This document shows, in pieces, positions 3,539 to 31,963 of a stretch of 64,000 nucleotides of DNA (positions are counted from its first letter, which is position 1; every line of letters starts with the position of its first letter). The notes under the pieces are model-generated. The model had not been told where the DNA came from, searched no databases, and saw nothing but the letters and a program-made list of their open reading frames with translations. A program made the position numbers and the translations under genes. The DNA comes from Somniosus microcephalus (Eukaryota), in NCBI GenBank assembly GCA_052327205.1, contig CM126210.1:164362001-164426000 (forward strand), given 5' to 3'.

Positions 3539-3658
3539 GACATGGCAGTTGCTGCAAGGGATGCTACGACTGGACAACTGGAGACTATAAAGATCAAATA
3601 TGAAGAAACCGTTGTGGCTCGGAAGAAGGCAGAAGATGAACTTGAAGCTTTCCGTCCA
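3539..3658 (+). CDS. IF gene, internal exon (coil 1B), 120 nt, phase 0/0: DMAVAARD...AEDELEAFRP
   Basis: Flanked by AG and GT; heptad pattern; aligns to vimentin AENTLQSFRQ; in frame with the next exon. Confidence 0.88.
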
Positions 3659-4087
3659 GTAAATAAACTGTTTGCTATCTTCCTACCTGTCTGTCAGTCT
3701 ATAGTATTTATCTCCTGTCTGTATGTCTAACTGTCTCCTTCACTGTTTACCTTTTTACTTCCAAAAAGGCTGAGTATTAAAATATCTACATCTCAATCTG
3801 TAATAAATATGTTTATAGGAAACAATGGGGATGAATTTCTGTAAGGCTTCTTCCACTCGCCAGCCATAACTTCAGTGGAGAACTGTGGAAACACTGTTTA
3901 TGTCATTTTTCTGGGGTTTCCACAGATCTTCCATTGAAGTTACAGCAGATGAATGGGAGAACCCCATGGAAATTCATCCCTATTGTAATTACATAACTTA
4001 AGGTCTACATACATACCGTTAGATAGTCTTCCTTCATTAATTTCTATTATATCTATCAGTAAGTAACAGGATTTATAATTATTTTAG

Positions 4088-4183
4088 GATGTTGATGCTG
4101 CCACAGCAGCCCGTATGGACCTTGAAAAGCAGCTGGAGAATCTTGAAGTTGAACTAGAATTCCTACAGAGAGTGCACAAAGAG
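4088..4183 (+). CDS. IF gene exon, 96 nt: DVDAATAARMDLEKQLENLEVELEFLQRVHKE
   Basis: ttttag/gtatag splice sites; same length, phase and sequence pattern as the 96-nt vimentin/desmin exon. Confidence 0.95.
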
Positions 4184-4719
4184 GTATAGTTTCATATTCA
4201 ACATAACATAAAGTCTGATTATAAGTTACACATTCATGCCGGTTTTATAATTTCTAGTTATAAGGGAGGAAGAGTCTAAAAAGCAAATACAAAACTAGAG
4301 ATTGAGTTATATAGGGGCTAGTATGTATAATAATAATATTGGTCAGTTCAACTGTTTCAGTTCTCCAACAGCATAATATAGAATATGTATAGAAAGAAAC
4401 ATATTGTGTGTATGAATAGGCAGACAAGTAACAGCAAGGAATAGACATGTAAGAATTTTGTGCTACTTTTTAATGAATTATCTGAGCAGGTAAACATGTC
4501 ACCTTGACAATAGCTGCATTGAAAATCTTGTTAACTTCCTATCATGAAGATTTTTTATCATAGAGCAAAATATAGCAGTCCATAAGTGACAAAATATTAC
4601 CAAAGAGTTGTGGTTTTCCTCCAAACCATTCTAGTTATGCTGCATGTAATTGTTAGCTTGAATTATCTTGTTTTTTTATGAAATTATCATTAAATATGTA
4701 TTATTTATCTGTTAAATAG

Positions 4720-4854
4720 GAAATTGAGGAACTAATGAAACAGATCTACAGTGTTAGTGCCAGTGTTGAGGTGACATACACTATTCCAGACCTGACTGCT
4801 GCACTCAAAGACATTCAACTTCAGTATGAAGACATATCAGTGAAGAATCTGCAG
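4720..4854 (+). CDS. IF gene exon, 135 nt: EIEELMKQ...PDLTAALKDIQLQYEDISVKNLQ (L12, coil 2A)
   Basis: aatag/gtaaga splice sites; PDLTAAL and KNLQ are type III/IV motifs. Confidence 0.95.
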
Positions 4855-5258
4855 GTAAGATGGTAAAGAAAGTGGGTTATTGCCCACTCTCTGGATAGAC
4901 CTTATGTGTCCTACATGCAGTATTTGTATGAGACTTAGTGAACACATACATTGGAGCATTGTTCTAACACACAGGGGTGAATTTCATCTTCAGGTATAAA
5001 TCAGTTCTAATTTGGCTTTTACTGCTTTAAGACCTGCTTGAATCTCAAGCGCTAATAACACTCAATTCTTTGGTCTAAAAAGAAAAAAGGAAGACTTGGA
5101 TTTATATAGTGCCTTTCACGACCTCAGGATTTCCCAAAGCACTTTACAGCCAATGAAGTACTTTTGAAATGTAGTCACTGTAGCAATGCAGGAAATGTGG
5201 CAGCCAATTTGCGCACAGCAAGGTCCCACAAACAGCAATGTGATAATTACCAGCTATT

Positions 5259-6016
5259 GGCCCAGAAATTCGGGTCGGGGACTTCCCACGGGTGCAAGCC
5301 CCCGACCTGCACTTACCTTGCGCGCCGGCAGTTGAGCTCTGGGCTCCCGTGGAATTCCGCTCCGGGGCCTGCTCCAACTCCTGACGCGCTGTGCTTGCGT
5401 GTCCCAGGGGCGTAGTTAGTGCGATGCGTCCCCTGGGATCACGTGAGCCATGGGCAGCCAATCAGAGGAGGGAAAAGCCCATTCATAAGATTGACAGGAA
5501 GACCTGTCTAAACTTATGAATATACGGGCCCCAAAATAACAGTAAACCTTCAAATACATTTTTTTTTTAAATCACACTTTTTAAATAAACTATAAATTAC
5601 ATTAAATAACTATTTTAAACAATAATTTAAAGTTTTGAAAAAAATAATTTTATGAAAAAACGGGGCAAAAATAAACTTACCTTGCTTTAAAATATTTAAA
5701 AATAATAAACCTGTGGAAAAAATGTTTTAATTTTAATTAATTGACCACTTACCTTTTAAAATGCAGGCCTTACGCCTGGTTTTTACATTTCTAAAATCTA
5801 AAGACTTAACCTCACAGAAAAACCTGTAAAAAAAACGTAAGTTCAAAGCGCAGACTCCCGCACGCACGCGTTCGACCTCTGAACCCCTTCGTTCAGAGGA
5901 ACGGAAGTGCCGGTTTCCCGCGCATGCGCAGTGCATGCAAGAAACCGGCACTTCCATCGGGTCCACGCGTGAGTACCCCGTGCGTACTCACGCGTTGGGA
6001 CCCGAATTTCTGGGCC
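5259..6016. mobile_element. Harbinger-type MITE
   Basis: Perfect TIR ggcccagaaattcgggtc / gacccgaatttctgggcc; flanks ATT/AAT; no transposase. Confidence 0.82.
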
Positions 6017-6181
6017 AATCTGTTTTAGTGAAGTTGATTTGAGGGATAAATATTGAGGATAACTCCCCTGCTCTTCTTTGAAATAGTGCCATGGGATCTT
6101 TTACATTAACCTGAGAGAGCAGACGTGGCCTTGGTTTAACACCTCATCGGAAAGTCAGCACCTCTGACAGTGCAGCACTCC

Positions 6182-6564
6182 CATAGTGGTTAGCACTGTT
6201 GCCTCACAGCGCCAGGGACCCGGGTTCAAATCCAGCCTTGGGTAACTGTCTGTGTGGAGTTTGCACATTCTCCCCGTGTTTGCGTGGGTTTCCTCCGGGT
6301 GCTCCGGTTTCCTCCCACAGTCCAAAGATGTGCAGGTTAGGTTGATTGGCCATGATAAAAATTGGCCCTTAGTGTTAGGGGGGATTAAATACGTGGGGTT
6401 ATGGGGTTACGGGGATAGGGCTTGGGTGGGATGGCTGTCGGTGTAGGGACCGGGTGCTAGGGTTTGGATGATCAGCCATGATCTTGTTGAATGGCGGAGC
6501 AGGCTCGAAGGGCCGAATGGCCTACTCCTGCTCCTATCTTCTATGTTTCTATGTTTCTATGTTT
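6182..6564 (+). mobile_element. V-SINE body with a CR1 LINE 3' end
   Basis: The body matches 617-850. The last ~115 bp match the reverse complement of 20228-20335 and end in (tttctatg)n. Confidence 0.85.
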
Positions 6565-7195
6565 ACTGCACTGGAATGTCAGCCTAGATTTTTGTGCTTA
6601 AGTCTCTGGAATGTCAGCCTAGATTTTTGTGCTTAAGTCTCTGGAGTGGGACCTGTACCCACAACCATTTGACTCGGAGGCGAGAGTGCTACCAACTGAG
6701 CCACGACTGACAACCAATTGTCTAACCTCATTTAAATAATTGTTCAACATCTCCAGGTGCAAACTCAGGTGGGTCTAGAGATGAAACAACTGGTAGGAGA
6801 GGAAAATTGCATGCAAACTAAATTTAAAGGGGTAGGGACAATAAAAGGGGAGTGTTAGAAAGAAGGAGACAAAAATGTAGGAAGCATCTGGAGAGCATTA
6901 AAAGGCATTTTAACCCATCAGCAACCTTAGCCAAGACTGAAGGAGCTGGTCACGAAGAAGTGGAATGCTAGCATGAAGGGAAAGGGGCCCCTAGGTACAA
7001 GTATGAGTCTGCAGACTAGTGACAGCAGAGTCCTGCACCCGGTCCCTTCTTTGATTGCTGTTGAAGTTGAGGTGCTGCTGCATGAGAAGCTTGCAAGGAG
7101 GGTTTTCCTTTTGCTATTTAACAGCACCATCCCATATGTCAACACTGCAGTGCTCCTGCAAGAATGTATGCACACCCAGCTCAGTCAACCCTGCA

Positions 7196-10033
7196 AAGTC
7201 CCCCTCACCAGCATCTGGGGACTTATACCAAAATTGGGAGAGCTGCCCCACAGACTAGTCAAGCAACAGCCTGACATAGTCATACTCACAGAATCATACC
7301 TTTCAGCCAATGTCCCAAAATCCTCCATCACCATCCCTGGGTATGTCCTGTCCCACTGGAAGGACAGACCCACCAGGGGTGGTGGCACAGTGGTATACAG
7401 TTGGGAAGGAGTGGCCCTGGGAATCCTCAACATTGACTCCGGACCCCATGAAGTCTCATGGCTTCAGGTCAAGCATGGGCAAGGAAACCTCCTGCTGATT
7501 ACCACCTACCGCCCTCCATCAGCTGATGAATCAGTACTCCGGCATGTTGAACACCACTTGGAAGAAGCACTGAGAGTAGCAAGGGCACAGAATGTACTCT
7601 GGGTGGGGGACTTCAATGTCCATCACCAAGAGTGGCCCGGTAGCACCACTACTAACTGAGCTGGCCGAGTCCTGAAGGACATAGCTGCCAGTCTGGGCCT
7701 GCGACAGGTGGTGAGAGAACCAACACGAGGGAAAAATCTACTTGACCTCGTCCTCACCAATCTACTTGTCACAGATGCATCTGTCCATGACAGAATTGGT
7801 AGCAGTGACCATCGCACAGTCATTGTGGAGACAAAGTCGTGTCTTACGCTCCATTGTGTTGTGTGGCACTACCACCATGCTAAATGGGATAGATTCAGAA
7901 CAGATCTAGCAGCTCAAAACTGGGCATACATGAGGTGCTGTGGGCCATCAGCAGCTGCAGAATTGTATTCCACCATAATCTGTAACCTCATGGCCCGGCA
8001 TATTCTTCACTCTACCATTGCCACCAAGCCAGGGAACCAACCCTGGTTCAATAAGGAGTGTAGAAGAGCATGACAGGAGCAGCACCAGGCATACCTAAAA
8101 ATGTGGTGCCAACATGGGGAAACTGTAAGATAGGACTACATGCATTTTAAAAAGCAGAAGCAGCATGCTATAGACAGGGCTAAGCAATCCAACAATCAAC
8201 GGATCAGATCAACACGCTGCAGTCCTGCCACTTCCAGTCGTGAATGGTGGTGGACCATTAAACAACTAATGGGAAGAGGAGGCTCCATGAATATCCCCAT
8301 CCTCAATGATGGTGGAGCCCAGCACGTGAGTGCAAAAGACAAGGCTGAAGCATTTGCAGCCATCTTCAGCCAGAAGTGCTGAGTGGATGATCCATATCGG
8401 TCTCCCCCTGAAGTCCCCACCATCACAAAAGCCAGTCTTCAGCCAATTCAATTCACTCCACGTGATATTAAGAAATGGCTGAGCACACTGCATACAGCAA
8501 AGGCTATGGGCCCTGACAACATCCCGGCTATCGTGCTGAAGACTTGTGCTCCAGAACTAGCCGCGCCTCTAGCCAAACTGTTACAGTACAGCTACAACAC
8601 TGACATCTATCCGACAATGTGGAAAACTGCCCAGGAATGTCCTGTCCACAAAAAGTAGGGCAAATCAAATCCGGCCAATTACCGCCCCATCAGTCTACTC
8701 TCAATCATCAGCAAAGTGATGGAAGGTGTCATCGACAATGCTATCAAGCAGTACTTACTCACGAATAACCTGCTCACTGATGCCCAGTTTGGGTTCCGCC
8801 AAGACCACTCGGCTCTTGACCTCATTAAAGCCTTGGTCCAAACATGGACAAAGGGCCTGAATTCCAGAGGAGAAGTGAGAGTGACTGCCCTTGACATCAA
8901 GGCAGCATTTGACCGAGTGTGGCATGAAGGTGCCCTAGTAAAACTGAAGTCAATGGGAATCGGGGGGGAAAACTCTCCACTGGCTGGAGTCATACCTATC
9001 ACAAAGGAAGATGGTTGTGGTGATTGAAAGTCAATCATCACAGCCCCAGGACATCGCTGCAGGAATTCCTCAGGGCAGTGTCCTAGGCCCAACCATCTTC
9101 AGCTGCTTCATCAATGACCTTCCCTCCAACATAAGGTCAGAAATAGGGATGTTCGCTGATGACTGCACAGTGTTCAGTGCCATTCACAACTCCTCAGATA
9201 ATAAAGCAGTCGATGCCCACATGCAACAAGACCTGAACGACGTTCAGGCTTGGGCTGATAAGTGGCAGGTAACATTCGCAGAGGTGCCAGGCAATGACTA
9301 TCTCCAACAAGCGAGAGTCTAACCATTCAATGGCATTACCATCGCCAAATCCCCCACCATCAACATCCTGGGGGTCACCATTGACCAGAAACTTAACAGG
9401 ACCAGCCACATAAATACTGTGGCAACAAGAGCAGGTCAGAGGCTAGGTATTCTGCGGCGGTCTCCTGACTCCCCAAAGCCTTTCTACCATCTACAAGGCA
9501 CAAGTAAGGAGTGTGATGGAATACTCTCCACTTGCCTGGTGAGTGCAGCTCGAACAACACTCAAGAAGCTCGACACCATCCAGGACAAAGCAGCCCACTT
9601 GATTGGCACCCCATCCAGCACCTTAAACATTCACTCCCTCCACCACTGGCGCACCGTAGCTGCAGTGTGTACCATCTACAAGATGCACTGCAGCAACTTG
9701 CCAAGACTTCTTCAACAGCACCTCTCAAACTCACAACCTCTACCTCCTAGAAGGACAAGGGCAGCAGGCGCATGGGAACACCATCACCTCCAAGTTCCCC
9801 TCCAAGTCACACACCATCCTGACTTAGAAGTATATCGCCAATCCTTCATCATCGCTAGGTCAAAATCCTGCAACTCCCTACCTAACAGCACTGTGGGAGT
9901 ACCTTCACCACACGGGCTGCAGCAGTTCAAGAAAGCAGCTCACCACCACCTTCTCAAGGGCAATTAGGGATGGGCAGTAAATGCTGGCCTTGCCAGCGAC
10001 GCCCACATCCCATAAACAAATAAAAGAAAAAAA
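7196..10033 (+). mobile_element. Decayed CR1-group LINE ORF2 (endonuclease + RT), family unresolved
   Basis: ILTESYL, YRPPS, GDFN, SDH, QFGFR, LDIKAAFD, PQGSVLGP and FADD motifs across stop-broken ORFs; A-rich 3' end at about 10015-10033. Confidence 0.88.
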
Positions 10034-10924: not shown

Positions 10925-11285
10925 AGTATATAATCTAGGCTGACTCTCCACTGAAATACTGAGGGGGTGCAGTATTGTTGGAGGTGCCATCCTTCAGATG
11001 AGATGTTAAACTGAAATCCAGTTTGGTTGTTTAGGTGGATATAATGCATCCTATGACATTATTTGCAGAAGTAGAGGGAGTTCCCACAGTGTCATGGCCA
11101 ACATTTCTCCCTAAACTAACATCACCTGAACAGATTAAGCAGTCCTTCATCTCATTGCTATATATGGTATCTTGTTGTGTTCAAATTGACTGCCATATTG
11201 GCCTACACAAGAACATGCACCATACTTCCTAGCAATTTATTGTATATGAAGCACATAAGGGACTGTATATATGCAAGTCTTCTAC
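10925..11285 (+). mobile_element. Degenerate DeuSINE-like SINE
   Basis: aatctaggctgac...ctgaggg...ggaggtgccatccttcagatgagatgttaaac core, shared with 27061-27480 and 5092-6712. Confidence 0.55.
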
Positions 11286-12724: not shown

Positions 12725-12835
12725 GAAATGGATGAATGGTATAAAAGCAAATTTGTTGATCTGAATCAAACATCTGCCAAACGCATAGAAAATGTGCGAA
12801 ACACAAGAGAAGAACTTGCAGAGTGTAAGCGGATT
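12725..12835 (+). CDS. IF gene exon, 111 nt: EMDEWYKSKFVDLNQTSAKR...ECKRI
   Basis: ctcctag/gtaagt splice sites; EWYKSKF motif. Confidence 0.95.
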
Positions 12836-14491: not shown

Positions 14492-14602
14492 CTTCAAAGC
14501 AGTCAGATGGAACTGGATGCACTGAAGTCCCGTAAGGCAGTACTGGAGGCTCAGAATAAAGAGGCAGCAAATAAATATAAAAAGGAGATTGAAGAATACC
14601 AG
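14492..14602 (+). CDS. IF gene exon, 111 nt: LQSSQMELDALKSRK...EIEEYQ
   Basis: ttttttcag/gtattc splice sites; aligns to vimentin VQSLTCEVDALKG...ANYQ. Confidence 0.93.
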
Positions 14603-16439
14603 GTATTCACAGTGGGTTTACTTCACTTTGGGCCTGAAATGCAATCTAGGTAAACAATTTAAAAGCATTTGCAACCATTTGTCCTGAAAGTTAAAGAACA
14701 GCTAATTAGTATTCTGATTGAGGATGAATTCTCTATTTAGCAGTAAATCGATATTGGCCCGGATTTTGCAGTCAGCAGTGAAGGAACGGCGCTCACTGTT
14801 CATTGCGCTGACAGCTGCCCGCAGACTTTTTGCGGGCTTTTGAGCGGCAACTTGCTGTCATCGGGCATCTGATCCAGCGCGGCGTCCCCTACAGGAGCTC
14901 TGTGGCTTGTGTGAGCAGGGAAAGCAACAGTGTATCTCCTCAACCAATCCAACTGAAGAATCCTCACTGAGACACACTGGGGGAAATTTTAACCTAAAAA
15001 AACAGGTGGGTTGTGGGTGTGTGGGTAGTTAAAGTGTTCAAAATGTGAATCCTGACCTGAACCCACCTCCAACCCGCCCACTTCCAGTTTTAACGGAGGC
15101 GGGACCGGGGACAAGCAGCAAATCCGCTGCCAGGAGGCAGGTCATCTATTTAAATATAAGGTGGCTGAAAGCCGCTGCTTTAACCGCCATTTTGAACTTA
15201 ACCTTCGCTGGTCAGGTTTTGCAGGCCTTGTGAAAGCCGTCAGCTAAAGCAAGGCGAGGACTGCTGGATCCAAGAGGTAAATGTCTTTACACTTACTTCC
15301 TGGATCCAGGGTCCTTACCTAACCCACCCCCTGTGATCAGAGACCCCCCCCCCCCACGAGGCCTCCCCCACCCCACCATACCATGCTCCTCTGGCCGCCG
15401 ATCTTTGCTGACATTCCCCCGCTCCTCTGGCCCTCCCCAAGCTGCGCCCGGCCCCCGATCCTTCAGCGAATGTCCCCTGCCCCGATCCTCCTTCGGCCGC
15501 CTTCTGGCCCACAATCGCTAATACACCACCTCCCCCACACTCCTCCAGCCGCCCCCTGGCCCCCACGCAATCGCTGCCTCCCAACTCTGTGCAGCCTAGT
15601 ACCGCTGGCCTACCTGCCCAGAGCCTGCCAGCCTCTCAATCTGGCTGGCTGTGGGTGGGAAATAAAGGCTGTAATGTATATACCTTTAAGGGGGGAACTA
15701 CTTTTTACAGCTCATGTATACTGTAGTACCGGCAGTGACCACACCTGTATATAGCACTGAGTAGTAATCTGTACAGTTCAGTTCCAGAGTGAGCCACGTT
15801 GAGTAAACACCTGTTGTACCGTTCTCCTGCAGTCTGTGTCTTACTACTGACAGACACAACATTGGCGACGAGGCAAATTCGATCCTACCTGCAACTCTGC
15901 ATCACCTCCCAGGGATTCGTTCCTGGAGACCAGTAGATCGGAGGTCAAGGCCAGAGACACGGGCGTCGACCACGGGCAACCGCCCAGTCATCCAGCAGAG
16001 ACTCGAGAATTGCGGGGGAGGCTGTTGAGAGCCAGGCTTGGCTTTCCAGTCGCGGTGGTCCAGCGAAACTGGCTGGCAACAGGTAGTGCGCAGACCCTTC
16101 CCGGACAGCGGCGGGCTAGAGCCCGACCGAGCGGCACAGCAAAGGGCTGAGCAGCGTCGATGGGAGAGAGAGAGAGAGGGCAGAGCGCACAGGGTGCAGC
16201 CGGTGTTCAGGGGCCGAGCAGCGTTGAGGAGAGGGAGAGAGACGCGCAGAAACCCGCGAGGCGCCGCCATTACCATGAGGACCGCCGAGAGCGGCGTTGG
16301 CAGCAGCGCAGGAGAAGCACGTGAAACCTACAGGGCGCCGCCATTGCCATGAGGACCGCCGAGAGCGGCGTTGGCAGCAGCGGGGGAGGAAGGAAAGCGC
16401 GGGAGATGCCATTTTAAGCCATTTTTAACCACACCCAAA

Positions 16440-19400
16440 ATGCCGAAGAGTGGCAGTATCACCGCATTTGACAATGAAGTCGAAGATTGGACTACATATG
16501 TCGAACGAATAGAGGTATACTGCAAGGCAAATGAGGTGTCAGATGACAAGAAAGCGCCGGTATTGTTAAATTTAATGGGTGCAAAAACGTATGGCTTATT
16601 ACAAAATCTAGTAACCCCAGCGAAGCCAGTGGAAAAGAGTTTTGGAGACATAGTGACGATACTACAGGAACATTTAAACCCCACACCGCTGTTGATAGCA
16701 GAAAGATTCAAGTTTCACAAACGGAACCAGCATAAGGATGAAAGCAATGCTGAATATTTAACAGAACTGCGCAAACTATCGAAACATTGCCAGTTTGGAA
16801 CGGGACTGGCAGATACCTTAAGGGACAAGTTTGTGTGTGGGCTTCAAAGTGAAGGAACCCAGAAACGGCTTTTATCTGAAAAGGACCTTACGCTGGACAA
16901 GGCTTTCAGCATTGCGGTATCATATGAAGCAGCAACACGGGGCGCTGCAGAGATACAACAGAGACCGCAAGAATATGGCACAAATGAAATGTCATACAGA
17001 ACAGAGAAGTGCTATCGCTGCGGCAGAACAACACATGACCACAATGATTGCTGGTTCAAAGACAAAGTGTGCAGACAGTGTGGAAAAGTAGGACACATAG
17101 CACGAGTCTGCAGGTCGGGAAAGAAAACCAGCAATAAGAAATCTCAAAGAAAAGTACAAGAAGGTACATAAGGTGACGGAGAATAGTTCAGATGAACAAA
17201 AGAGTGATACCGACTCCGAAAGCAGGGAGCTGAGTTGTCTGAAACTACATAATGTGATCAAAACGGAGGATCACCGAACCATTTGGGTCACTCTCAAGAT
17301 AGCAGGAGTCCAGGTAAAAATGGAATTGGACACAGGATCAGCCCTATCAGTCATAAACCAATGGGACTATGAGCGGCTATTCTCACATATACCCTTGAGA
17401 GACACAAACATTATTTTGAAGACGTACACGGGGCAAAAAGTCTACCCCAAAGGAAAAATAAGGGTGACCGTTATATATAACGGTAAGGAAACACCAAAAC
17501 TAGACCTGTATGTATTGCAAGATGGAGGACCACCATTACTGGGACGTGAATGGATCCGGAAAATACAGCTGGATTGGCATTCCATACAAGCACTGACTGT
17601 GGCTGCCAAAAAGGATGACGACATCACACCTGGGCGACTGTCAAAGATCCTAACCGACGCACAAGAAGTGTTCCAGCAAGGACTCGGAACACTAAAAGGC
17701 ATGACAGCAACAATTAAAATTGAAGAAAACACAAGCCCAAAATTTTTTAAGGCCAGACCGGTACCTTATGCGATCCGCCCAGCTGTCGAAGCAGAGCTGG
17801 AGAGTTTGGAATGTTCAGGAGTACTGTCCAAGGTAGACTGGAGCGAGTGGGCTACACCCATCGTCCCTGTGATGAAAAAGTCGTTGAGCAGCAGGCCTGG
17901 GGAACCAAGGAAGGTTCGCATCTGTGGGGACTTTAAGGTAACAGTGAACCCAGTCCTTCACACCGTGCAATATCCACTTCCGCAGATTGAAGATATTTTC
18001 GCCTTGCTATCTGGAGGGAAATGCTTCACTAAGATTGATCTGGCCCAGGCGTATCTGCAAATGGAGGTAGAAGAAGCATCAAAAAAAAACCTCACAATCA
18101 ACACCCATAAAGGTCTCTACCAATACAACCGGCTGGTATTCGGGGTAGCATCAGCTCCGGCTATTTGGCAAAGGGCAATGGAACAAGTCCTGCAAGGGAT
18201 CCCAGGGACCCAGTGTTATTTGGACAACATCCTGGTCACGGGCGAAAATGACAGTGATCACCTCGCCAACCTGGAGCAGGTGCTCACTAGATTGAAGGAA
18301 TATGGGCTCCGAGCTAACCGCCCCAAATGCGAGTTTTTTAAAAAACAGATCTCGTATTGTGGCCACGTTATCAATAAAGAGGGGTTACATAAGTCCCCAG
18401 AAAAGATTGAGGCAGTAGTCAAGGCTCCAGCACCGGAAAACGTGTCACAACTGAGGTCGTTCCTCGGGCTGGTAAACTACTACCATAAGTTCTTGCCAAA
18501 TTTGTCTACAATACTACACCCGCTGAACACCCTACTGCAAACTGGAGTGCCATGGAAGTGGAGTGACGAATGTAAATGAGCTTTCCAGAAGAGCAAAACA
18601 CTAATCACATCGAAAGAGGTATTGGCCCATTTCAACCCAGCACTACCAATTCGGTTGGCGTGTGATGCATCACCCTATGGCATTGGAGCGGTGCTGTCGC
18701 ACAAATTCTCGGACGGCTCAGAGAGGCCAATAGCCTTTGCGTCACGATCACTAACCTCAGCCGAGCGTAACTACGCCCAGATTGACAGGGAGGCCCTCAG
18801 CCTAGTGTGGGGAGTGAAAAAGTTCAATCACTATCTGCACGGGCAGAAATTCACATTGCTGACTGACCACCAGCCTCTTGTCTCCATTTTTAATCCGAAG
18901 AAGGGCGTTCCGGTGATGACTGCGCAACGACTACAAAGATGGTCACTCTTTCTAGGGGTGCACCACTATGAGATTGAATATAAGGGCACGAAACAACATG
19001 GAAATGCTGATGGGCTATCACGCCTGCCACTGCCTACTGCGGAGGAAGCACCAGCAGTGGATCCTGTCGAAATATTTCATTCGACTATAGTTGAATACCT
19101 ACCGGTAACTAACGCTCGTATAGAAAAGGAGACCCGAAATGACCCGACACTGTCTCGAGTACATGATTTGACGGTGAAGGGATGGCCAGCACATGGCGAC
19201 TCACTGTTGCCAGCATTCTCGACAAGAAGAGAACAGCTGTCAGTGTGCCGGGGGACCTTGATGTGTGGATCCCGAGTGGTAATTCCACTCAAGTTAAAGG
19301 ATAGAGTGCTAAATGAGCTTCATGAGGGTCATCTGGGAGGGGTAAAAATGAAAAGCCTTGCTAGGGCTTATGTGTGGTGGCCGGGAATCGATAAACAAAT

Positions 19401-22400
19401 CGAGGACCTGACCAAGAGCTGCTCAGGATGCCAGAAAGTCCAAAATGCACCACCACATGCCCCTCTACACCCATGGGCGTGGCCCTCATCTCCATGGCAA
19501 CGGTTGCATATTGATTTTGCTGGTCCATTCATGGACTCAATGTTTTTAATAGCCATGGATGCGCACTCGAAATGGCCTGAGGTCATCAAAATGTCCTCCA
19601 CCACCACGGAGAAAACTATTGCAGTCCTACGGACCATTTTTGCCAGGAACGGCTTGCCGGAACAGATCTGCTCCGATAACGGACCACAGTTTGTGTCCGA
19701 AGAGTTCCGGAGGTTTATGAAGAAGAATGGGGTAAGGCATTACACATCCACCCCGTATCATCCAGCCACAAATGGATTGGCTGAGAGGTTCGTACAAACC
19801 TTTAAGAAGGCAATAAATGCTATGTACAATGACAACATTCCGCTGCAGCATAAGGTGGACAATTTCCTGTTCGCCTACCGGAATGCGGCACATGCAGTCA
19901 CCAACCAGGCCCCGGCCATGATGTTCTTTAACCGAAGGTTAAGATCTCGCCTGGATTTGCTCAGACCAAACGTACGAAGAGATGTTGAGAGTAAGCAATT
20001 CCAGCACATCCATGAGAAGCCAACAAGGAGCTTCAATGTAGGGCAACCAGTCTTGGCCCGCGACTACCGAACAGAAAAATGGCAGCCAGGAACGATATGC
20101 ACACGGCAGGGCCCACTAATGTACACAGTGGACGTTGGGGAGAATATCGTGAGACGCCATGCTGACCAGATCCTAGAGTCACAGGAACAAGTCAACCCCA
20201 TGCCTCGCCCATACGTACCTGGTGAGGAACATAGAAGATAGGAGCAGGAGTAGGCCATTCGGCCCTTCGAGCCTGCTCCGCCATTCAATGAGATCATGGC
20301 TGATCATCCAAATTCAGTACCCTGTCCCTGCCTTCTCCCCATATCCCTTGATCCCTTTAGCCTCAAGAAATATATCCAACTCTTTCTTGAATATATTTAA
20401 TGAACTGGCCTCCACCGCCCTCTGTGGCAGAGAATTCCACAGGTTCACCACTCTCTGGGTGAAGAAGTTCCTCCTCATTTCAGTCCTAAATGGCTTACCC
20501 CTTATCCTTAGACTATGACCCCTGGTTCTGGACTCCCCGGCCATCTGAAACATCATTCCTGCATCTAGTCTGTCCAGACCTGACAGAATTTTATAGGTTT
20601 CGATGAGATCCCCTCTCAATCTTCTAAACTCCAGTGAGTATAAGCCCAATCGACACAATCTCTCCTCATACGTCATTCCTGCCATCCCAGGTATCAGCCT
20701 GGTGAATCTTCGCTGCACTCCCTCCATGGCAAGAACGTCCTTCCTCAGGTAAGGTGACCAAAACTGCACACAATACTCAAGGTGCGGTCTCACGAAGGCC
20801 CTGTACAACTGTAGCAAGACATCCTTGTTCCTGTACTCAAACACTCTTGCTACGAAGACCAACATACCATTTGCCTTCTTAACCGCCTGCTGCACCTGCA
20901 TGCTTACCTTCAGCGACTGGTGCACAATAACACGCAGGTCTCTTTGCACTTCTCCTTCTCCCAATCTATTGCCATTCAAATAATAATCTGCCTTCCTGTT
21001 TTTGCCACCAAAGTGGATAACCTCACATTTATCCACATTATAGTGCATTTGCCATGTTTCTGCCCAATCACCCAACCTGTCCAAATCATACTGGGGTTTC
21101 ACGACATCCTCCTCACAGCTTACCCTCCCACCAAGCTTTGTGTCATCTGCAAATTTGGAGATATTACATCCAATTCCCTCGTCCAGATCATTAATATATA
21201 TTGTGAACAGCTGGGGTCCTAGGACCGATCCTTGCGGTACCCCACTAGTCACTGCCTGCCACTCGGAAAACGACCCGTTTATTCCAACTCTTTGCTTTCT
21301 GTCCGCCAACCAGTTCTCTATCCAAGTCAATACCTTGCCCCCAATCCCATGTGCCTTAATTTTGCACGCTAATCTCTTGTGTGGGACCTTATCGAAAGCC
21401 TTCTGAAAGTCCAAATACACCACATCCACTGGTTCTCCCTTATCTATTTTACCAGTTACATCCTCAAAAAATTCCAGTAGATTAGTCAAGCATGATCTAC
21501 CTTTTGTAAATCCATGCTGACTTTGTCCGATCCTCTCATTGTTTTCCAAGTGCTCTGCTATTACATCTTTTATAATAGACTCCAGCATTTTCCCCACTAC
21601 CGATGTCAGGCTTACCGGCCTATGATTCCCCGCTTTTTCTCTACCACCTTTTTTGAATAGTGGGGTAACATTAGCTACCCTCCAATCCATGGGTACCGTT
21701 CCAGAGTCTATCGAGTTCTGGAAGATGACCAGCAATGCATCTACTATCTCTAGAGCCACTTCCTTCAGTACCCTGGGATGTAGACCATCAGGCCCTGGGG
21801 ATTTATCGGCCTTCAGTCCCATCAATTTTCCTAACACCATTTCCCTACAAATACTGATTTCTTTCAGTTCCTCCCTTTCAACAGACCCTATGTTCCCCGA
21901 CATCTCTGGGAGGTTATTTGTGTCCTCCTTTGTGAAGACAGAACCAAAGTATGTATTTAGTTGGTCTGCCATTTCCTTGTTTCCCATTATAAATTCCCCT
22001 GATTCTGACTGTAAGGGACCTATGCTTGACTTCACCAATCTTTTTCTCTTCACATATCTATAAAAGCTTTTACAGTCAGTTTTTATGTTCCCTGATAGCT
22101 TACTCTCATATTCTATTTTCCCTTTCTTAATTAATCCCTTTGTCCTCCTTTGTTGACTCCTAAACTGCTCCCAATCCTCAGGATTATTGCTTTTTCTAGC
22201 CAATTTATATGTCCTCTCCTTGGATCTTATGCTATCCCTAATTTCCCTTGTTAGCCACGGTTGAGTCACCTTTTTTGTTTTATTTTTATGCCAAACTGGG
22301 ATGAACAAATTCTGTAGCTCATCCATTCGGTCTTTGAATGTTTGCCATTGCCTATCCACTGTCAACCCTTTGAGTGCCATTCCCCAATCAATCCTACCCA

Positions 22401-22871
22401 ACTTGCTCCTCAGACCATCGTAGTTTCCTTTATTTAAATTGAGGACCCTTGTCTCTGAGTCAACTACTTCGTTCTCCATCTTAATGAAGAATTCGATCAT
22501 ATTATGATCGCTCCGACCCAAGGGGCCTCGTACAACAAGATTGCTAATTAATCCTTTCTCGTTACATAATACCCAGTCTAAGATGGCCTGATCTCTGGTT
22601 GGTTCCTCGACATATTGGTCCAGGAAACCATCCCGTAAACACTCCAGGAATTCCTCCTCCACAGTATTGTTACTAATTTGGTTGGCCCAATCTATATGTA
22701 GATTAAAGTCACCCATGATGACTGCTGTGCCCTTATTGCACGCTAGCATCGGAAGCTGATGACCCAACCGACGACAGGGTGCCAGAATCGCCTCCGCACC
22801 AAGAGCGAGACACTCTGGAAAGGCGCTATCCAGAAAGGATCAGAAAGCCTCCCCAAAGACTGAATATATAA
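16440..22871 (+). pseudogene. Gypsy gag-pol (two CCHC knuckles, protease, RT, RNase H, integrase), inactivated
   Basis: CYRCGRTTHDHNDC, CRQCGKVGHIARVC, LDTGS, CDAS, HIDF, SDNG and NGLAER motifs. Lesions: frameshift near 17140-17170, RT YLDN instead of YLDD, TGA at 18577, and a CR1 in the integrase tail, which resumes at 22744-22871 (...RRYPERIRKPPQRLNI*). Confidence 0.92.
20228..22743 (-). mobile_element. 5'-truncated young CR1 LINE with uninterrupted ORF2, inserted in the Gypsy integrase
   Basis: About 810 codons without a stop, with QHGF, DFQKAFD, PQGSVLGP and FADD; CR1 3'UTR and ttctatgt tail; homology to the first CR1 ends at 22743. Confidence 0.95.
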
Positions 22872-24065: not shown

Positions 24066-24190
24066 ATCAAAATTGAGAGCTTACAACAAGAACTGAGTAC
24101 CATCAAGGAAAAGATAGCTTTGCATTTACGTGAATATCAAGACCTGCTCAACATTAAGATGGCACTGGAGGTTGAAATTACGACATACAG
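24066..24190 (+). CDS. IF gene exon, 125 nt, phase 0/2: [10 protein letters not shown]...[22 protein letters not shown]
   Basis: ctgcag/gtaagg splice sites; IF helix-termination consensus. Confidence 0.97.
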
Positions 24191-25121: not shown

Positions 25122-25991
25122 GGGGGAAAAATTCGGTTGGTTTGCGCCTCCTGTTAGCACCTTAAGAGGGCGCTAATGGGGCGCAAAGCAACTAGCGCCC
25201 GTACACGGCAATGTTTGCGCCGCTCACGAAATTAACTAGACATTTTGCGGCGGCGCTAAACACTACCGCCACGATCTCCTGCGTTGGCAACGCCCCGGTA
25301 GCGCCCCATACCCGATATTGAGTGGTGCCCTCTGCCTTACCACCTGCTGCTAGCAATGACAAGTTGAGGGGAGCGTTTTGCAGTCAGGAAGGGACTGGGG
25401 GAGCGTTATTTAAAGGCGACCGCTTCCTGCCTTTTTTTGTTGGTGACATTTTTGCACCACGCATTCTGAGAGAGAGAGAGAGAGACTTCTGGAGAGATTC
25501 AACACTGTGTGAAGGAGTTTTGGGTACTGAGCAGCACTTTGCAGGTTCATTTTGACTTGCCCTTCCTTGTATCGATTTAGAAGAGACTGTGGGGACTGCA
25601 CTCTGAGCTCGTTCCCTGGGTCTCTCCATTGTTCTTTCCAGCAGATTTGATGTACAGGTCTCGCCAGGCCGAGATTCAAGGCTGCAATGAGCAGGATGTG
25701 GGTGGAGAGCAAGATGAACCCTCCCCTTTAAGAACTGGCCAGCGCCATTGTGTCTGTGTTCCATTGCTGACTGACATCACATGAGCTTCGCCAGCACTCT
25801 GAGGTAGCGCCTCGCTCCTCGGCCTTTGCGTCTTAAGACAGGTGTGTAGCGCCTGATTTAGCGCTCCAATCGCCTCCAGAGGCGATAAAAGCCAAGTTTG
25901 CAGTCGGAGGCGATAATTAGCGCCAGGTGCTAATCTTTGCGCCCGGCCGACTAATTGCGCCCCAAATAGGGCGCTACTGAATTTCTCCCCC
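25122..25991. mobile_element. Harbinger-type MITE, next to a minus-strand CR1 3' tail fragment (about 25012-25120)
   Basis: TIR gggggaaaaattcggt / actgaatttctccccc; many gcgcc subterminal repeats. Confidence 0.72.
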
Positions 25992-26151
25992 ATGAACTTG
26001 AAGCATCCCCATTAGCAAATCTACTGGCACTAGTAAAGGGAAAGTGGGGCAAAAATAAATAATTAATGAGAACTAGCACAAAGGTTGACAAAAAAAAAAT
26101 CTGCCGTTTAGGCTTTCATGAGACTGGGCCATAACAGGTCTAAAACACCTA

Positions 26152-26849
26152 GGCCTAGAAATTCGGTGGGGTTAGCGCCCAATTAGAGGCGTTAGAGGGT
26201 CTTGCGCCGGAATTATAGCTGGTAACGAAATTGCGTTGGGCCCTACCATCGGCGTTAGCCGGTAGCGCTGCGCCAGCACTGATGACGTCATCGGTGTGCA
26301 CAGCGTCCAGGTTGCCGTGGTAACCCGGCCCCAAGCCCAAATTCAGTTGCGGCCGCCTCGCCCGTGGCAGCCGCAACCAACGATTGTTGAAAGGGATGTT
26401 ACACACCTTTGCGCCGGCGCATAAAGGTGGAGCGGCAGCCGGCCGCTTTCCCGGCGGCCGCCTGCCCGCACCTCCCTCCCCGGACTCCTCCACCACCCCC
26501 CCCGCGGCACTGATGTGTGTGGCCCGCGAGCCCGGCTCTTCCCCGAGGTGCCGGGCTCATTTGTCGGGTGAATCGACCGGCCAGCGGTCGGCTGCAGGCA
26601 GCTCCTCCTTAACAGAAGGAGGAGGCCTGCAGTACCCCAGCCTGCCGCACCGCCTCGGGTGCCGCAGCGGGGGATTAGCGCCTCAAAACTGCACTGAACG
26701 CCCATAGTGAGGCGCAAAAACCCTCCATTAGCGCCCGCCGCCGTCTGGGCCCGGGGCAACCGAATTTTCGTCGGGTGCAGCGGCATTAACGCCGGTGCAA
26801 AATTTCGGGCGCTAAAGCCCTGGCGGACCCACAACCGAATTTCTAGGCC
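26152..26849. mobile_element. Harbinger-type MITE, GC- and CpG-rich
   Basis: Perfect 16-bp TIR ggcctagaaattcggt / accgaatttctaggcc; 3-bp TSD CTA. Confidence 0.85.
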
Positions 26850-27060
26850 CTACTTTTGAAATCAGTAGGTCTTTTAAAGGCTCTTTTGCCTAAACGTGCA
26901 CCCAGCAGCTCCTTGTTTGCACCCAAAATCAGGACTTAAGGTACACACAAATTTGGCCCCTATGATTCTATAAAGGGAAATTTTAGACATGATGATGCAC
27001 CAGTGAGTGAGATGATGTTTTATGCTTTGTTATTTACAAATTCTCCATGTTTTAAATTTT

Positions 27061-27480
27061 CAGCTTAGCCCAGTTGGTAGCACTATTGCCTCTGAGGCAA
27101 AAAGTTGTGGGATTAAGCCGACTATAGGACTTGAGCACGTAATTTAGGCTGACAGTTCAGTGGGGTGCTGAGGGAGTGCTACATTGGCTGAGGTGCCATC
27201 TTTGGAATGAGACATTAAACCAAGACCCCGTTTGCCTGTTCAGGTGGATGTAAAAGATCCCACTATTCAAAGAAGAGCAGGGCACTTCTCCCAATATCCT
27301 GGTCAACATTTATCCATCAAGCAACATAACTATAAACACTCACCTTGCTGAGTGAAAATTGGCTGCTGTGTTTGTCTCCATGACTATAGTGAATACACTT
27401 AAAAAAATAATTAATTGGCATTAAATTGCTTTGGGATGTCCTGAGGACATGAAAGATGCTAAATAAATGTAAGTTCTTTC
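27061..27480 (+). mobile_element. DeuSINE-like SINE
   Basis: Decayed tRNA head (cagttggtagcact...gcctctgag...gttgtgggattaag), Deu-like core and L2-like tail. Confidence 0.65.
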
Positions 27481-27649
27481 TCTAATACATCCATTATTTT
27501 CTGCTACTAATTATTTTGAAAAAGTAAAAACACGCTTTGTCCTTTAATCATTTTATTCAACTCCAGTCCATGGTTTCAGGGGTGTTTGTTGGAAGACTGA
27601 ATTCCTTCCTGTGAAAGCAAACTTTTTTGGTTTTTTACCAACCTCACAG

Positions 27650-27793
27650 GAAGTTGATTGAAGGAGAGGATTCTCGCTTGTCAACAGTGATGGGTGGGTT
27701 CTGCATGATGGGGCAAGGGAACCTCAGCGCCATTGAGAGCATTTCCAAGGAACAGGCTGTGGAGACGACCGAAAGGAAAACTGTACTTATCAG
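27650..27793 (+). CDS. IF gene exon, 144 nt, phase 2/2: KLIEGEDSRL...TTERKTVLI
   Basis: ctcacag/gtaaaa splice sites; completes TYRKLIEGE; the tail resembles type III KRTLLIKTVET. Confidence 0.95.
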
Positions 27794-28088
27794 GTAAAAG
27801 TAATTCACTCCTCCAGTGCCTGAAGAGCAAATTATAAATTGGAAGTCCCTTTAGGTATTGCAATATACCTGTGATCAGCAGCAAAAGTATATTTCCCACT
27901 TAAGTGGTAAGATAGGTGAAGAAAATAATAAAAATATTTTAATTTTACATATGGGTAACTTGCAGAATTTAAGTTTTTGTAAATATGTTTCTTGAGAAAT
28001 TTTGGTATCAGACTCGTGTGCTTTCTTTCATTTTCCCCCCTTTGGTGGTGGAGAAGAAATCAGGAAAAGGTGTAAAAAAAAATGGAGT

Positions 28089-28294
28089 GACTGTTGCCAA
28101 CGAACGAAAGCTGTGCAGAAGCGTACTGCGCATTAATCTGGAACTGGAAGCATGATGTTTCTGGGGTTTTTTTCCCCCAGAGCCCGCTCCCTCCCCGGCA
28201 TTTAAAAAAAATTAACAAGCCCGCTCCCTTAACGAGCCAGAAGCGCACATGCGCAGAACGCTGCTACACAGCTTCCGGTTCGTTGGCAGCAGTC
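28089..28294. repeat. Fold-back with ~46-bp imperfect inverted arms
   Basis: 28089-28133 pairs with 28249-28294. Confidence 0.8.
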
Positions 28295-28901
28295 GTGTCC
28301 TACAAAATAATACGTAAAGTGATGTACACTATTTCATTTCAATTGAGATGTCTTCAGGTGTTCATATCTATTTTATAATGGTAATTTCAATCACAGTTTA
28401 AATCTCAGTGAATAAATATGCAATACACTGCGCAATAACACAGTTGATTCTTATGTGCTGCTTAATGTGGCAAACAAATGTTTGGGTTTCTACATGAAAT
28501 TTTATTACTTTATTGACTCTGGCTCCCATTTCTAACACTAAGGAGGTACTTTAATGAATTTGTGCTCCTGGTGCAGAACCTCGCCGCTGGAGGCACGTAT
28601 TAGGAAATCAGGCACATGCTCTCCATGATTTTCTATCCATTTTCTGATCTGTTCCTGGTGCAGAGCCTTGCCCAAGCTCATAAAATTACCCCAGAAATGT
28701 TCCAAAATTCATTCGGACTGGACCCGTGTCATGCTTGGACTGTAACCTAGACCAGGATAATGTTCCAGGGTTTAGTGTTCAATGGTGACTGTGCGATTTA
28801 TCCATCTATCGCTCCGTCCCAGAAGCCAACGAGTTAGCATATTCTGAAAATTCAGGAAAGAGGTTTGCCTCAGAAGTGAATAACATCCACAGGATTGTCA
28901 T

Positions 28902-30877
28902 TAAAAACAGAAAATGCTGCAAATACTCAGCAGGTCAGGCAGCATCTGTGGAGAGAGAAACAGAGTTAATGTTTCAGGTCGATGACCTTTCGTCAGAACT
29001 GGAAAAAGTTAGAGATGTAACAGATTTTAAGCAAGTACAGGGGCAGGGAAAGGGGGAGGGGAGGAAAGAACAAAAGGGAAGGTCTGATAGGATGGAAGGC
29101 AGGAGTGATTAAATGACAAAAAGTATGATTGTACAAAGCAAAAGGAGATGGTAATGGGACAAGTAAAGAAACAAAAGATGAGTCTAGATGAGGTGTAAAT
29201 GTGAATAGCAGAATCATCAACAGCTGCAATCTGGAATAAATAGGGGCAGAGGTTATGGTCTGAAAATGTTGAACTCAATGTTGAGTCCAGAAGGCTGTAT
29301 AGTGCCTAATCGAAAGATGAGGTGCCGCAAAGTGGTCACCCAATCTGCATTTGGTCTCCCCAATGTAGAGGAGACCGCATCATGAGCAGCGAATACAGTA
29401 TACTAGATTGCAAGAAGTACAAGTAAATCGGTGTTTCACCTGGAAGTAATGTTTGGGGCCCTGGACAGTGGGAAAGGAGGAGGTAAAATGGCAGGTGTTG
29501 AATCTCCTGCGCTTGCATGGGAAGCTGTCGTGGGAAGGGGAGTGGGTGTTTGGGGGTGATTGAGGAGTGGACCAGGGTGTTGCAGAGGGAGCGGTCCCTT
29601 CGGAATGCTGAAAGGGGAGGGGAAGCTGTGTTTGGTGGTGGGATCACGCTGGAGGTGGCGGAATTGGCGGAGGATGATCCATTGAATATGAAGGCTGGTG
29701 GGGTGGAAGGTGAGGCCAAGGGAAACCCTATCGTGGTTCTAGGAGGGATCGGATGGGGTGAGAGCAGAAGTGCGGGAAATGGAACGGACACGGTCGAGGG
29801 CCGTGTCAACCACAGTAGAGGGGAATCCTCAGTTGAGGAAAAAGGAAAACATATCGGAAGCACTGATAAGGAAGGTGGCATCGTCAGAACAGATGTGACA
29901 GAGATGGAGAAATTGGGAGAATGGGATAGAATCCTTACAGGAAGCAGGGTGGGAGGAAATGTAGTCCAGGTAGCTGTGGGAGTCAGTGGGCTTATAGTTT
30001 GTTCATAGCCTATCCCCAGAAATGGAAACAAAGAAGTCGAGGAAGGGAAGAGTCAGAGATGGACCATGTGAAGGTGAGGGAAGGGTAGAAATTGGAAGCA
30101 AAGTGAATGAAATCAGTCATCAATGTTCTGGAAAAAGAGGTGAGGGAGAGGACCTGAGTAGGATTGGAACAATGAATGTTCCACATATCCAATGAGAAGG
30201 CAGGCATAGCTAGGACCCATGTGGGTTCCCATAGCAACACCTTTTATTTGAAGGAAGTGAGAACAGCCAAAGGAGAAGTTGTTCAATGTGAGAACAAGTT
30301 TAGCCAGACGGAGGAGAGTGGTCGTGAATGAGGACTGGTTGGGCTTCTGTTCAAGGAAGAAGCGGAGTGTCCTCAGGCCAACCTGGTGAGGGGTGGAGGT
30401 GTAGAGGGATTGGACGTCCATGGTGAAAAGGAGATGGTTGAGGCCAGGAAACTGAAAACTGTTAAAGGGGCGGAGGGCGTCGGAAGAGTCGCGGATGTAG
30501 GTGGGAAGAGACTGGACAAGGGGAGAAAAATAGAGTCGAGATAGGAAGAAATCAGTTCCGTGGGGCAAAAACAGGCTGAAACAATGGGTCTACCAGGGCA
30601 GTCCTGTTTGTGGATCTTGGGAACAAGGTAGAAGTGTGGGATTGGGGGACTATGAGGTTGGTGGCTGTGGGGGGAAGTTCTCCAGAGGAGGTGAGGTCAG
30701 TGACAGTCTTGGAGACGATGGCTTGATGTTCGGTAGTGGGGTCATGGTCCAGGAGGAGGTAGGAGGAGGTGTCAGAGCTAGCATTCAGCCTCCAAGGTAG
30801 AGGTTGGTTCGCCAAACAACAACAGTGCCACCCTTGTCAGCAGATTTAATGACAATGTTGGGGTTGGATCTGAGAGA
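28902..30877 (-). mobile_element. 5'-truncated Penelope-like element (RT + GIY-YIG endonuclease, decayed)
   Basis: MDVQSLYT and GVAMGTHMGPSYA motifs; GIY-YIG region around 29340-29440; pLTR; 13-bp TSD acaggattgtcat. Confidence 0.9.
28963..29001 (-). ncRNA. Minimal hammerhead ribozyme motif in a Penelope pLTR
   Basis: Minus strand reads cagtt CTGACGA aaggtc atc gacct GAAA cattaact; stem III carries a probable CpG-decay change. Confidence 0.65.
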
Positions 30878-31691
30878 ACAGGATTGTCATGTTATGCAAT
30901 TTAATACATAAACCCATTGTTTATATTGGTTCTTTAAAAATTATTAAAACTAATGCAGAGAAGAAAATATTAGGGTCTGTCCATATTTGATAGTTGCAAT
31001 TTATTTATAGTGGGGACAATTTTAACTTTACCCACCCAATGGAAAGTGGGTAGGTAGGCAGTTAAAATCACTCTGGTTACATACCTTCCCTGGAAATACC
31101 AGGAGATGTCCGTCAACCTGCTCTACTGAGCAGGCAGCAAGGACACCTGTCCAAAATCGGCAGGGTCAATTTTTACATATGCATATCGGGTCCTGATGAC
31201 GTCATCAGGACCTGACTGTAACTTTAACTGGACGGCCTGAGCAGGAAGCTACAGCCAAGTGAAGACCGCAGCGAAGCAGATCGGGGCCTGAGAAAGCCCA
31301 AACAGGTAAAAAAAAAATATTTGTTGGGCCTGGCGTTATGTGCCTTTGCCTGTTTTTCCTCTACCTATTGCGCAGGAAATGGGTGGACATGCGGCATTAA
31401 GCTGAGGAAAACCAGCTCCATTTTTTCCTGATATTGTGAAGTACCACAATGATTTAAAAGATACTGCCTTCAGCTAGACATTAGTGAATTATGAAAAGTA
31501 TACACATAATGTTGCTTCACAGCCCTTATTTCCACTTGGATACTATAGGGACAGACTTTCCCTGCACCTGGGTGTATTGGATCACCTGGGCACAGCACAT
31601 ACAGATGTCACACCCATAAGGGAGCCTGCCTGATTTTCTATCCACTTCACTGTGAAACTGCAAATGCTGTAACCTTTTCTTTTAATCTTAG

Positions 31692-31785
31692 AACAGTTAA
31701 AACAGATGAAGACATGTTGCAAAAAGACACACAAGAGAGAACCATTACAATCTCTGGTGCTGCAGATTATAGCGATGAAGAATAA
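31692..31785 (+). CDS. IF gene last coding exon: TVKTDEDMLQKDTQERTITISGAADYSDEE*
   Basis: Pyrimidine tract plus ttag acceptor; the phase-2 join gives RKTVLIRTVKTDE; TAA stop followed by an AT-rich UTR. Confidence 0.85.
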
Positions 31786-31957: not shown

Positions 31958-31963
31958 AATAAA
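31958..31963 (+). terminator. Candidate polyadenylation signal of the IF gene
   Basis: AATAAA about 170 nt after the stop, with ATTAAA and a GT-rich stretch just downstream. Confidence 0.5.

Follow-up and report, generated by a model that had tools for sequence, protein, structure and literature searches.

A shark ngs gene combines type I-III and type IV intermediate filament introns and likely preserves a step in the origin of neurofilament genes

A stretch of 64,000 nucleotides (nt) from the 6.4-Gb genome of the shark Somniosus microcephalus (C9:164,362,001-164,426,000, contig CM126210.1; hereafter the window) holds exons 4 to 11 of ngs (notochord granular surface), a gene of the intermediate filament (IF) superfamily. 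We show here that this gene is intact, present in a single copy, and carries three introns of type I-III IF genes together with both introns of the type IV neurofilament (NF) genes. The textbook account of NF origin rests on mammalian genes, where these two intron sets never meet. In our reading ngs is likely the sister of the NF genes and likely kept old introns that the NFs lost, and we give this reading as a whole a probability of about 0.6. The mixed intron set likely preserves a step in the origin of NF genes. A first-pass annotation, made from the letters of the window, had already noticed both intron classes in one gene, and in this it was right. It had further proposed a separate IF lineage with an ancestral intron-rich type III/IV state, or else a mosaic, and had thought of poorly characterised fish genes; these proposals fared unequally.

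The window part of the gene comprises eight exons of 120, 96, 135, 111, 111, 125, 144 and 94 nt, with AG acceptors at 8/8, GT donors at 7/7, phases 0, 0, 0, 0, 0, 2 and 2, and a frame that stays open to a TAA stop, just as first annotated. The gene starts outside the window, and its first three exons, which measure 227, 151 and 150 nt, stand about 15.7, 9.9 and 8.1 kb upstream of the first base of the window. The complete gene has 11 exons and encodes 487 amino acids (aa), and a TATA-like box stands about 70 nt 5' of the ATG. Its parts are as follows (window coordinates, unless a retrieved locus is named; a slash within a motif marks the junction):

L010:4275-4501, exon 1, head with ATG, 227 nt, upstream of the window
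L009:74-224, exon 2, coil 1A, 151 nt; 3' end YIEK/, the type II keratin position
L009:1876-2025, exon 3, 150 nt, upstream of the window
3539..3658, plus strand, exon 4, coil 1B, 120 nt; its 5' intron (VQR/DMA) is private to the ngs family
4088..4183, plus strand, exon 5, 96 nt; 5' end FRP/DVD, a type II/III position, and 3' end HKE/EI, a type I/II/III/lamin position
4720..4854, plus strand, exon 6, 135 nt; end of coil 1B, linker L12 and start of coil 2
12725..12835, plus strand, exon 7, coil 2, 111 nt; unbroken at WYKSK, 3' end at the private KRI/LQS
14492..14602, plus strand, exon 8, coil 2, 111 nt; unbroken at the type I-III position after column 254
24066..24190, plus strand, exon 9, 125 nt, phase 0/2; NF/nestin-type exon ending inside TYR
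27650..27793, plus strand, exon 10, rod end and tail, 144 nt; unbroken at the type I-III position EDSR
31692..31785, plus strand, exon 11, coding part, 94 nt, to the TAA stop
31958..31963, plus strand, candidate polyadenylation signal AATAAA, 172 nt past the stop, a consensus match only

Junction calls rest on DNA and protein comparison, including a spliced aligner written for the analysis. With the Xenopus orthologue (P0084) as its only guide, the aligner re-derived 9 of the 10 junctions blind, up to the 144-nt exon and short of the last exon, and the spliced protein matches the annotated shark orthologues P0001 and P0002 without gaps at all rod junctions. Exon 6 ends at the private position NLQ/EMD, nine codons 5' of the type I-III position WYKSK/, while exon 8 ends at the first type IV position, EYQ/IKI, in phase 0. 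An in-frame TAA follows the donor of exon 9, whose profile span of 261-304 is that of NF genes. The 3' end of exon 10 is a phase-2 tail position that is not common to the type III tail introns, and exons 10 and 11 encode a short tail whose motif KTVLIRTVKT resembles that of type III. From EIEEL to the R of EDSR the rod measures 510 nt; counted as far as the AG of that R codon it is 509 nt, the sum of 162+126+221, so that the rod is collinear with that of vimentin, as had been claimed.

A search with the IF rod profile PF00038 gave 123 exon-level matches in the genome, and 32 loci were retrieved wholly or partly and their introns placed on one profile. Introns are written as column/phase, the column being the residue of the shark ngs protein minus 90; partial or spurious alignments (C29:26.98, C3:133.4, C4:312.9, C1:5.07, C5:79.1, C32:34.6 and lamin exon 2) were left uncounted. 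The rod introns of shark ngs are 36/0, 86/0, 126/0, 158/0, 203/0, 240/0, 277/0 and 318/2. One of them belongs to type II only, one to types II and III, one to types I-III and lamins and two to types IV and VI, and three (86/0, 203/0, 240/0) are private; further private introns lie in head and tail. The 96-nt exon, first taken as a type II/III mark, has identical boundaries in 4/4 completely retrieved type III genes and 3/3 type II keratins of the same genome. The 125-nt exon likewise deserved its reading as an NF mark: its boundaries are identical in 7/7 NF-type genes examined (of about 10), all of which have 277/0 and 318/2 and none of which has a type I-III position (0/7). Both introns also occur in a nestin-like gene of this genome, and type VI genes in general carry them according to Guerette 2007 (PMC2075511).

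Type III genes have 105/2, 126/0, 158/0, 212/0 and 254/0 in 4/4 complete cases, and 328/2 in three that were re-aligned with desmin. Shark ngs has two of these six rod introns and neither of the two tail introns, and the type III introns after WYKSK, LKGT and EESR are indeed absent. All three type II keratins have 126/0, 158/0, 212/0 and 254/0, and 105/2 is absent from one of them; 36/0 is fully shown in one, present as an acceptor in the second and lies beyond the retrieved DNA in the third. This position, YIEK/V, occurs in none of the type III genes examined. It had been missed in the first listing of extra positions. Of the positions listed there, those at NLQ, at KRI and before DMA are private, and the tail one is not a type III position. 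Type I keratins have 78/0, 105/2, 158/0, 212/0 and 254/0 in 4/4, and lamins have 158/0, 212/0 and 254/0 in 4/4 and 105/2 in 3/4. Thus, shark ngs has the 277/0 and 318/2 pair that frames the 125-nt exon of type IV genes, together with three type I-III introns in a head and rod where type IV genes have none. It has three rod positions in common with type II keratins, short of their full set, and lies outside the type II clade (100/100). The chance of five of eight rod introns falling on the 12 known positions is 7e-9 if any base may be hit, 2e-6 for codon boundaries only and 4e-3 in the worst case, with AG/R sites only.

The same survey brought up further IF loci with structures of their own. 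A NIF-like neuronal IF gene (L025, C30:27.53 Mb) has an extra phase-0 intron at column 171 beside both type IV introns, and a type II keratin-like gene (L060-L062, C4:338.58-338.60 Mb) is without 105/2, giving one 270-nt exon. Four tandem NF-type genes, one with a stop inside the profile match, lie at C29:26.83-26.98 Mb (L022, L038), with a lone NF-like fragment at C29:26.98 Mb, and two tandem type III genes at C5:78.95 and 79.05-79.12 Mb (L027, L028, L052-L054).

Orthology and tree identify the gene as the single shark orthologue of ngs/zgc:172323, an IF family of fishes and amphibians, and not as a poorly characterised one. With exon 2 as query 53 proteins were recovered, headed by shark and ray "desmin", Callorhinchus Zgc:172323 and teleost notochord granular surface. 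Over 487 aa the identity of the spliced protein is 92.8% with Heptranchias P0001 and 90.3% with Carcharodon P0002. In the rod, identity is 63-64% to Danio ngs and zgc:172323, 49.5% to a hagfish protein (P0152, UniRef A0A8C4QYH6), 42-46% to shark type III (shark desmin, at 45.7%, being highest among the shark paralogues), 35-44% to shark type IV and 29-35% to type II keratins. In a stricter first look, C9 was the sole locus of the genome matching P0001 at high identity. The best 120 of 713 matches with the shark rod and the best 120 of 1451 with the axolotl rod come from chondrichthyans, bichir, sturgeon, gar, bowfin and teleosts, and also from coelacanth, lungfish, salamanders and frogs. No named amniote row stands among these best 120 of 713 and best 120 of 1451, which include 1 and 2 unnamed rows, respectively. 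Probably, ngs was lost in amniotes, and such a loss would explain the two disjoint intron sets of the mammalian data.

Database names are misleading here. RefSeq names the shark orthologues desmin, and the family is labelled desmin or GFAP-like in databases. The true desmin orthologue is another gene, at C4:315.5 Mb, which has the standard type III structure and groups with marsupial desmin at 100/99. A desmin or GFAP identity of the ngs gene is rejected. The protein of zebrafish ngs is presumably the one called chordostatin. Upstream of the shark locus, at 0.40 Mb, lies an exon with the sole PF17172 match of the genome, which we take to be FAXC-like from the Pfam family. Zebrafish has the order faxca-ccnc-ngs-pgm3, as given in a preprint (bioRxiv 2023.01.04.522723). 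A synteny profile search with PF21549 gave no match near the locus; dozens of near-identical exons with this PR/SET domain lie at C12:184-227 Mb, a large PRDM-like expansion.

The same introns are found in teleost orthologues. A metagenome scan gave five loci (L079-L083) from 127 pattern matches, and four of them (L080-L083) are 6-kb fish contigs that are 95-99% alike and were counted as one teleost lineage, a herring protein being nearest among those compared. They have 86/0, 126/0, 158/0, 203/0, 240/0, 277/0 and 318/2, that is 7/8 rod introns at the same column and phase. The eighth, 36/0, keeps its acceptor, with GA standing at the donor site. This GA-AG intron after YIEK lies at L080:3357-3519 (also in L081-L083), and cyprinid-like open reading frame fragments (P0031, P0032) suggest GC. 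The other fish fragment, L079, has 36/0 as GT-AG and ends at 86, and the VQR/DMA boundary is shared by L079-L083. In the two teleost contigs aligned over their full length, the donors of head and tail could be located as well. The family thus shares one exon structure, and the teleost orthologue has the same set as the shark; a recent shark-specific intron gain is rejected. We also surveyed junction gaps in 198 family proteins at >=52% identity. A frog isoform (P0355) is without exactly residues 176-216, which is exon 4; among the other models one is without 293-330, one without 247-292, and four end at 409. Five database models of the 198 have insertions at 126, the YIEK junction. Gaps that fit no boundary occur in P0036, P0149, P0153, P0154, P0164 and P0196, which are probably poor predictions.

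For the phylogeny, a guide tree was built from 168 of 185 rows (17 with <80% coverage were dropped), and the main IQ-TREE analysis used 41 rows and 315 columns with a lamin root, long-branched type VI rows being left out. The ngs clade, which includes hagfish P0152 and the named ngs proteins, has 9 rows and full support (100/100). Type IV (99/97), type III (95/89) and type II (100/100) each form a clade without ngs. An ngs gene nested inside type III or type IV is therefore rejected, and ngs is a separate, old IF lineage, as the first-pass annotation had proposed. In the best tree ngs joins a one-intron gene (96/62), both join type IV (93/84), and type III follows (94/91); ngs is thus likely the sister of type IV. 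The rod phylogeny that had been suggested as a check confirms separateness and places ngs beside type IV, but leaves alternatives unrejected by approximately unbiased (AU) tests. Coil 1A and DVD lie 90 residues apart in 8/8 ngs rows and in the countable type IV and II rows, and 88 in 6/6 type III rows.

The one-intron gene (L026, C1:21,440,359-21,446,690, minus strand) is an observation in its own right. It encodes a tailless IF protein, has a single rod intron at 114/1 and no type I-III or type IV introns. It has a lamprey orthologue (P0184, 368 aa, named vimentin-like) and an RV.SPSP head motif in common with ngs, with which it is sister at 96/62. It resembles an old retrocopy or a gene that lost introns by way of complementary DNA (cDNA).

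We propose the following history. The ancestor would have had an intron set like that of type II, type III and lamin genes. The common stem of ngs and type IV/VI would have lost the 3' introns together with one in coil 1B, probably by recombination with a partial cDNA, and would have gained the two type IV introns. Because 277/0 and 318/2 are absent from types I-III and lamins, parsimony reads them best as gains on this stem. After duplication ngs would have kept three 5' introns and gained three private rod introns, while the neurofilaments would have lost the 5' introns. On this reading the neurofilaments did not begin as a fully intronless retrocopy; gains of type IV introns in an intron-bearing gene conflict with a strict retrocopy origin. 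The proposed ancestral type III/IV state stands in part, as old introns were kept, but only 2/6 type III rod introns are present, YIEK/V is of type II and the type IV introns are best taken as gains.

Several points weigh against this history. Under it the neurofilaments would have lost three 5' introns but retained two at the 3' side, the opposite of cDNA-mediated intron loss with its usual 3' bias. A chimera, too, would be expected to have every old position 5' of the two type IV ones, as is the case here. Support for ngs and the one-intron gene with type IV (93/84) stays under the star threshold, and neither ngs with type III (p 0.144), nor ngs with type IV alone (0.262), nor type III, type IV and the one-intron gene without ngs (0.291) is rejected by AU tests. 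In half-rod trees ngs is one clade, yet it joins type IV in neither half. The 90-residue length has no clear polarity, because it is common to type II keratins and Ciona IF-B as well. The gene structures compared are those of jawed vertebrates, with hagfish entering as a protein, and the loss in amniotes is drawn from the best 120 of 1451 and 120 of 713 matches. Finally, CCNC and PGM3 were not found near the locus in profile searches with PF16899, PF21405 and PF00134, which are insensitive.

The best placed alternative is an ancient mosaic, in which the NF ancestor was a retrocopy with two gained introns and ngs was assembled from the 5' half of a type II/III-like gene and the 3' half of an early type IV gene, so that the classical model survives. 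The order of introns fits it well, since the old positions (columns 36, 126, 158) all precede those of type IV (277, 318), and none of the three 3' type I-III introns is present. It also profits from the AU tests, which reject none of three whole-rod alternatives, and from the two halves falling in different places. These places are not the ones that a mosaic predicts, however. In the 5' half tree ngs stands outside all other cytoplasmic IFs (92/60) and not with type II or III, and in the 3' half tree it falls weakly with type II (57/82), while type IV joins type III and tunicate rows (92/93) without ngs. The half-rod trees have little power, but they lend the mosaic claim no support. Moreover, the tail motif is type III-like and not NF-like, and 105/2 is missing from the 5' half, too. 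We regard a mosaic as unlikely, though worth weighing.

A second alternative lets ngs branch before types III and IV split, from a common ancestor with both sets, of which type III would have lost the type IV introns and type IV the rest. The grouping of type III, type IV and the one-intron gene without ngs (p 0.291), the basal place of ngs in the 5' half tree and the type II-only position YIEK/V, which suggests old retention, would suit this. However, the type I, II and III genes and the lamins examined are all without 277/0 and 318/2 and all share 212/0 and 254/0, and a gene with both sets would have to contain an exon of 30 nt, from 318/2 to 328/2, unless introns were lost and regained repeatedly. 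This makes early branching decidedly improbable.

Parallel gain would mean that a gene derived from type IV acquired introns anew, three of which fell on old positions by chance, or that a type III gene gained the two type IV positions. In its favour, private introns were gained in this lineage (three in the rod, others in head and tail), and another NF-type gene of the genome has the extra intron 171/0. If gains are restricted to AG/R sites, the worst case, three matches have p 0.02 and two p 0.013. With codon boundaries these values drop to 2e-4 (three) and 6e-4 (two), and two of the three old sites are not AG/R here. Type IV and type III are, moreover, each monophyletic without ngs, and we consider parallel gain very improbable. 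That the pattern is an artefact of misread junctions, or ordinary desmin as the RefSeq names would have it, is practically negligible in view of the blind re-derivation, an alignment with annotated orthologues that is free of gaps, teleost DNA with identical junctions and a true desmin of standard type III structure at C4:315.5 Mb.

Beyond the history that we favour, a wider version is tentative and, in our judgement, falls short of an even chance: ngs would be a vertebrate-wide IF class that arose before hagfish and gnathostomes split, was lost in amniotes and is the true sister of NF and nestin; its gene, conserved from shark to teleost, would be the missing intermediate in which the type IV introns were gained beside keratin- and vimentin-type ones, overturning the 1986 retroposition model, and the one-intron gene, a second overlooked lineage, would be a real retrocopy-like offshoot from that stem. 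The hagfish family member makes the question directly testable with one or two cyclostome gene structures.

The predicted protein is a cytoplasmic IF protein with a PF00038 rod of the short chordate type, LNDR and TYRKLLEGE-like end motifs and a Ser/Arg-rich head with SSYRR. Coil 1B is short, with the 96-nt exon and a 90-residue spacing like types II and IV, where lamins have exons of 126 nt and 171 nt. The tail of about 70 aa ends in DEE, and lamin tail domain and CaaX are absent. The best match among solved structures is vimentin 8rve, and, judged by its family, the protein would dimerise as a coiled coil and assemble into 10-nm filaments. A role in the notochord is suggested by the title of Tong 2013 on zebrafish ngs, and the shark protein likely would brace notochord cells as the zebrafish gene does. 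The remaining long frames of the window resemble relics of mobile elements. LTR-retrotransposon-like and LINE-like (long terminal repeat; long interspersed nuclear element) frames were recognised by eye in introns and downstream (16353-20238, 20317-22839, 45393-45965, 49279-53311), with a coiled-coil frame on the minus strand at 45393-45965, and intron 3 holds a tandem repeat of three 74-nt units at 2924-3142.

The core phenomenon, a mixed intron set, has been known since 2003, when a Fugu rubripes IF gene mixing type I-III and type IV introns was taken as contrary to the retroposition model (Zimek 2003, PMID 12697841, as cited in Guerette 2007, PMC2075511). That fish case could have been peculiar to teleosts; with all eight rod introns common to shark and teleost, the mixture is placed at the base of jawed vertebrates. 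The abstract of the 2003 work by Zimek, Stick and Weber reportedly counts two type IV, three type I-III and three novel introns. Since this count equals that of the shark gene, the Fugu gene is likely ngs or zgc:172323. This would link the fish exception to a gene whose notochord phenotype is known, and to a whole family that carries desmin or GFAP-like labels. No paper linking ngs to this intron pattern was found in a search outside which most subscription papers lie, so prior publication is possible, and the accessible parts of PMC9748118, PMC10793473, PMC11328412 and PMC11271003 add nothing on gene structure. New here are the likely identity with ngs, the conservation between shark and teleost and the vertebrate-wide age. 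The interest is mainly for specialists of the cytoskeleton and of intron evolution, where intron-based IF models have been said to suffer from low sampling and intron loss to be common (Kollmar 2015).

Among known systems, zebrafish ngs (PMID 23132861) and the teleost paralogue zgc:172323 are closest, with a joint clade (100/100), 63-64% rod identity, the same head start, the same introns in a teleost family member and perhaps a FAXC-like neighbour. However, the shark has one copy where teleosts have two, and its tail is short and without the Gly-rich insertions of many teleost copies. Compared to the Fugu gene, known from one teleost as cited, the present analysis adds a shark and another teleost lineage, as well as a protein from hagfish and a phylogeny. 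Type II keratins share 36/0, 126/0 and 158/0 with ngs, and the 270 nt between the first two, but differ by 105/2, 212/0, 254/0 and a rod-end intron, and ngs lies outside the keratin cluster. Type III genes (vimentin, desmin, GFAP, peripherin) have the 96-nt exon, the SSYRR head motif and the tail motif in common with ngs, which in contrast is without 105/2, 212/0, 254/0, 328/2 and both tail introns and has a linker L1 two residues longer. From type IV NF and alpha-internexin genes ngs is set apart by six further rod introns, where the NFs have one long first exon, and it is without the long NF tail. Yet it is with type IV and with type VI nestin that ngs shares 277/0, 318/2 and the 125-nt exon, and type IV, which also has the same length from coil 1A to DVD, is its nearest class in the best tree.

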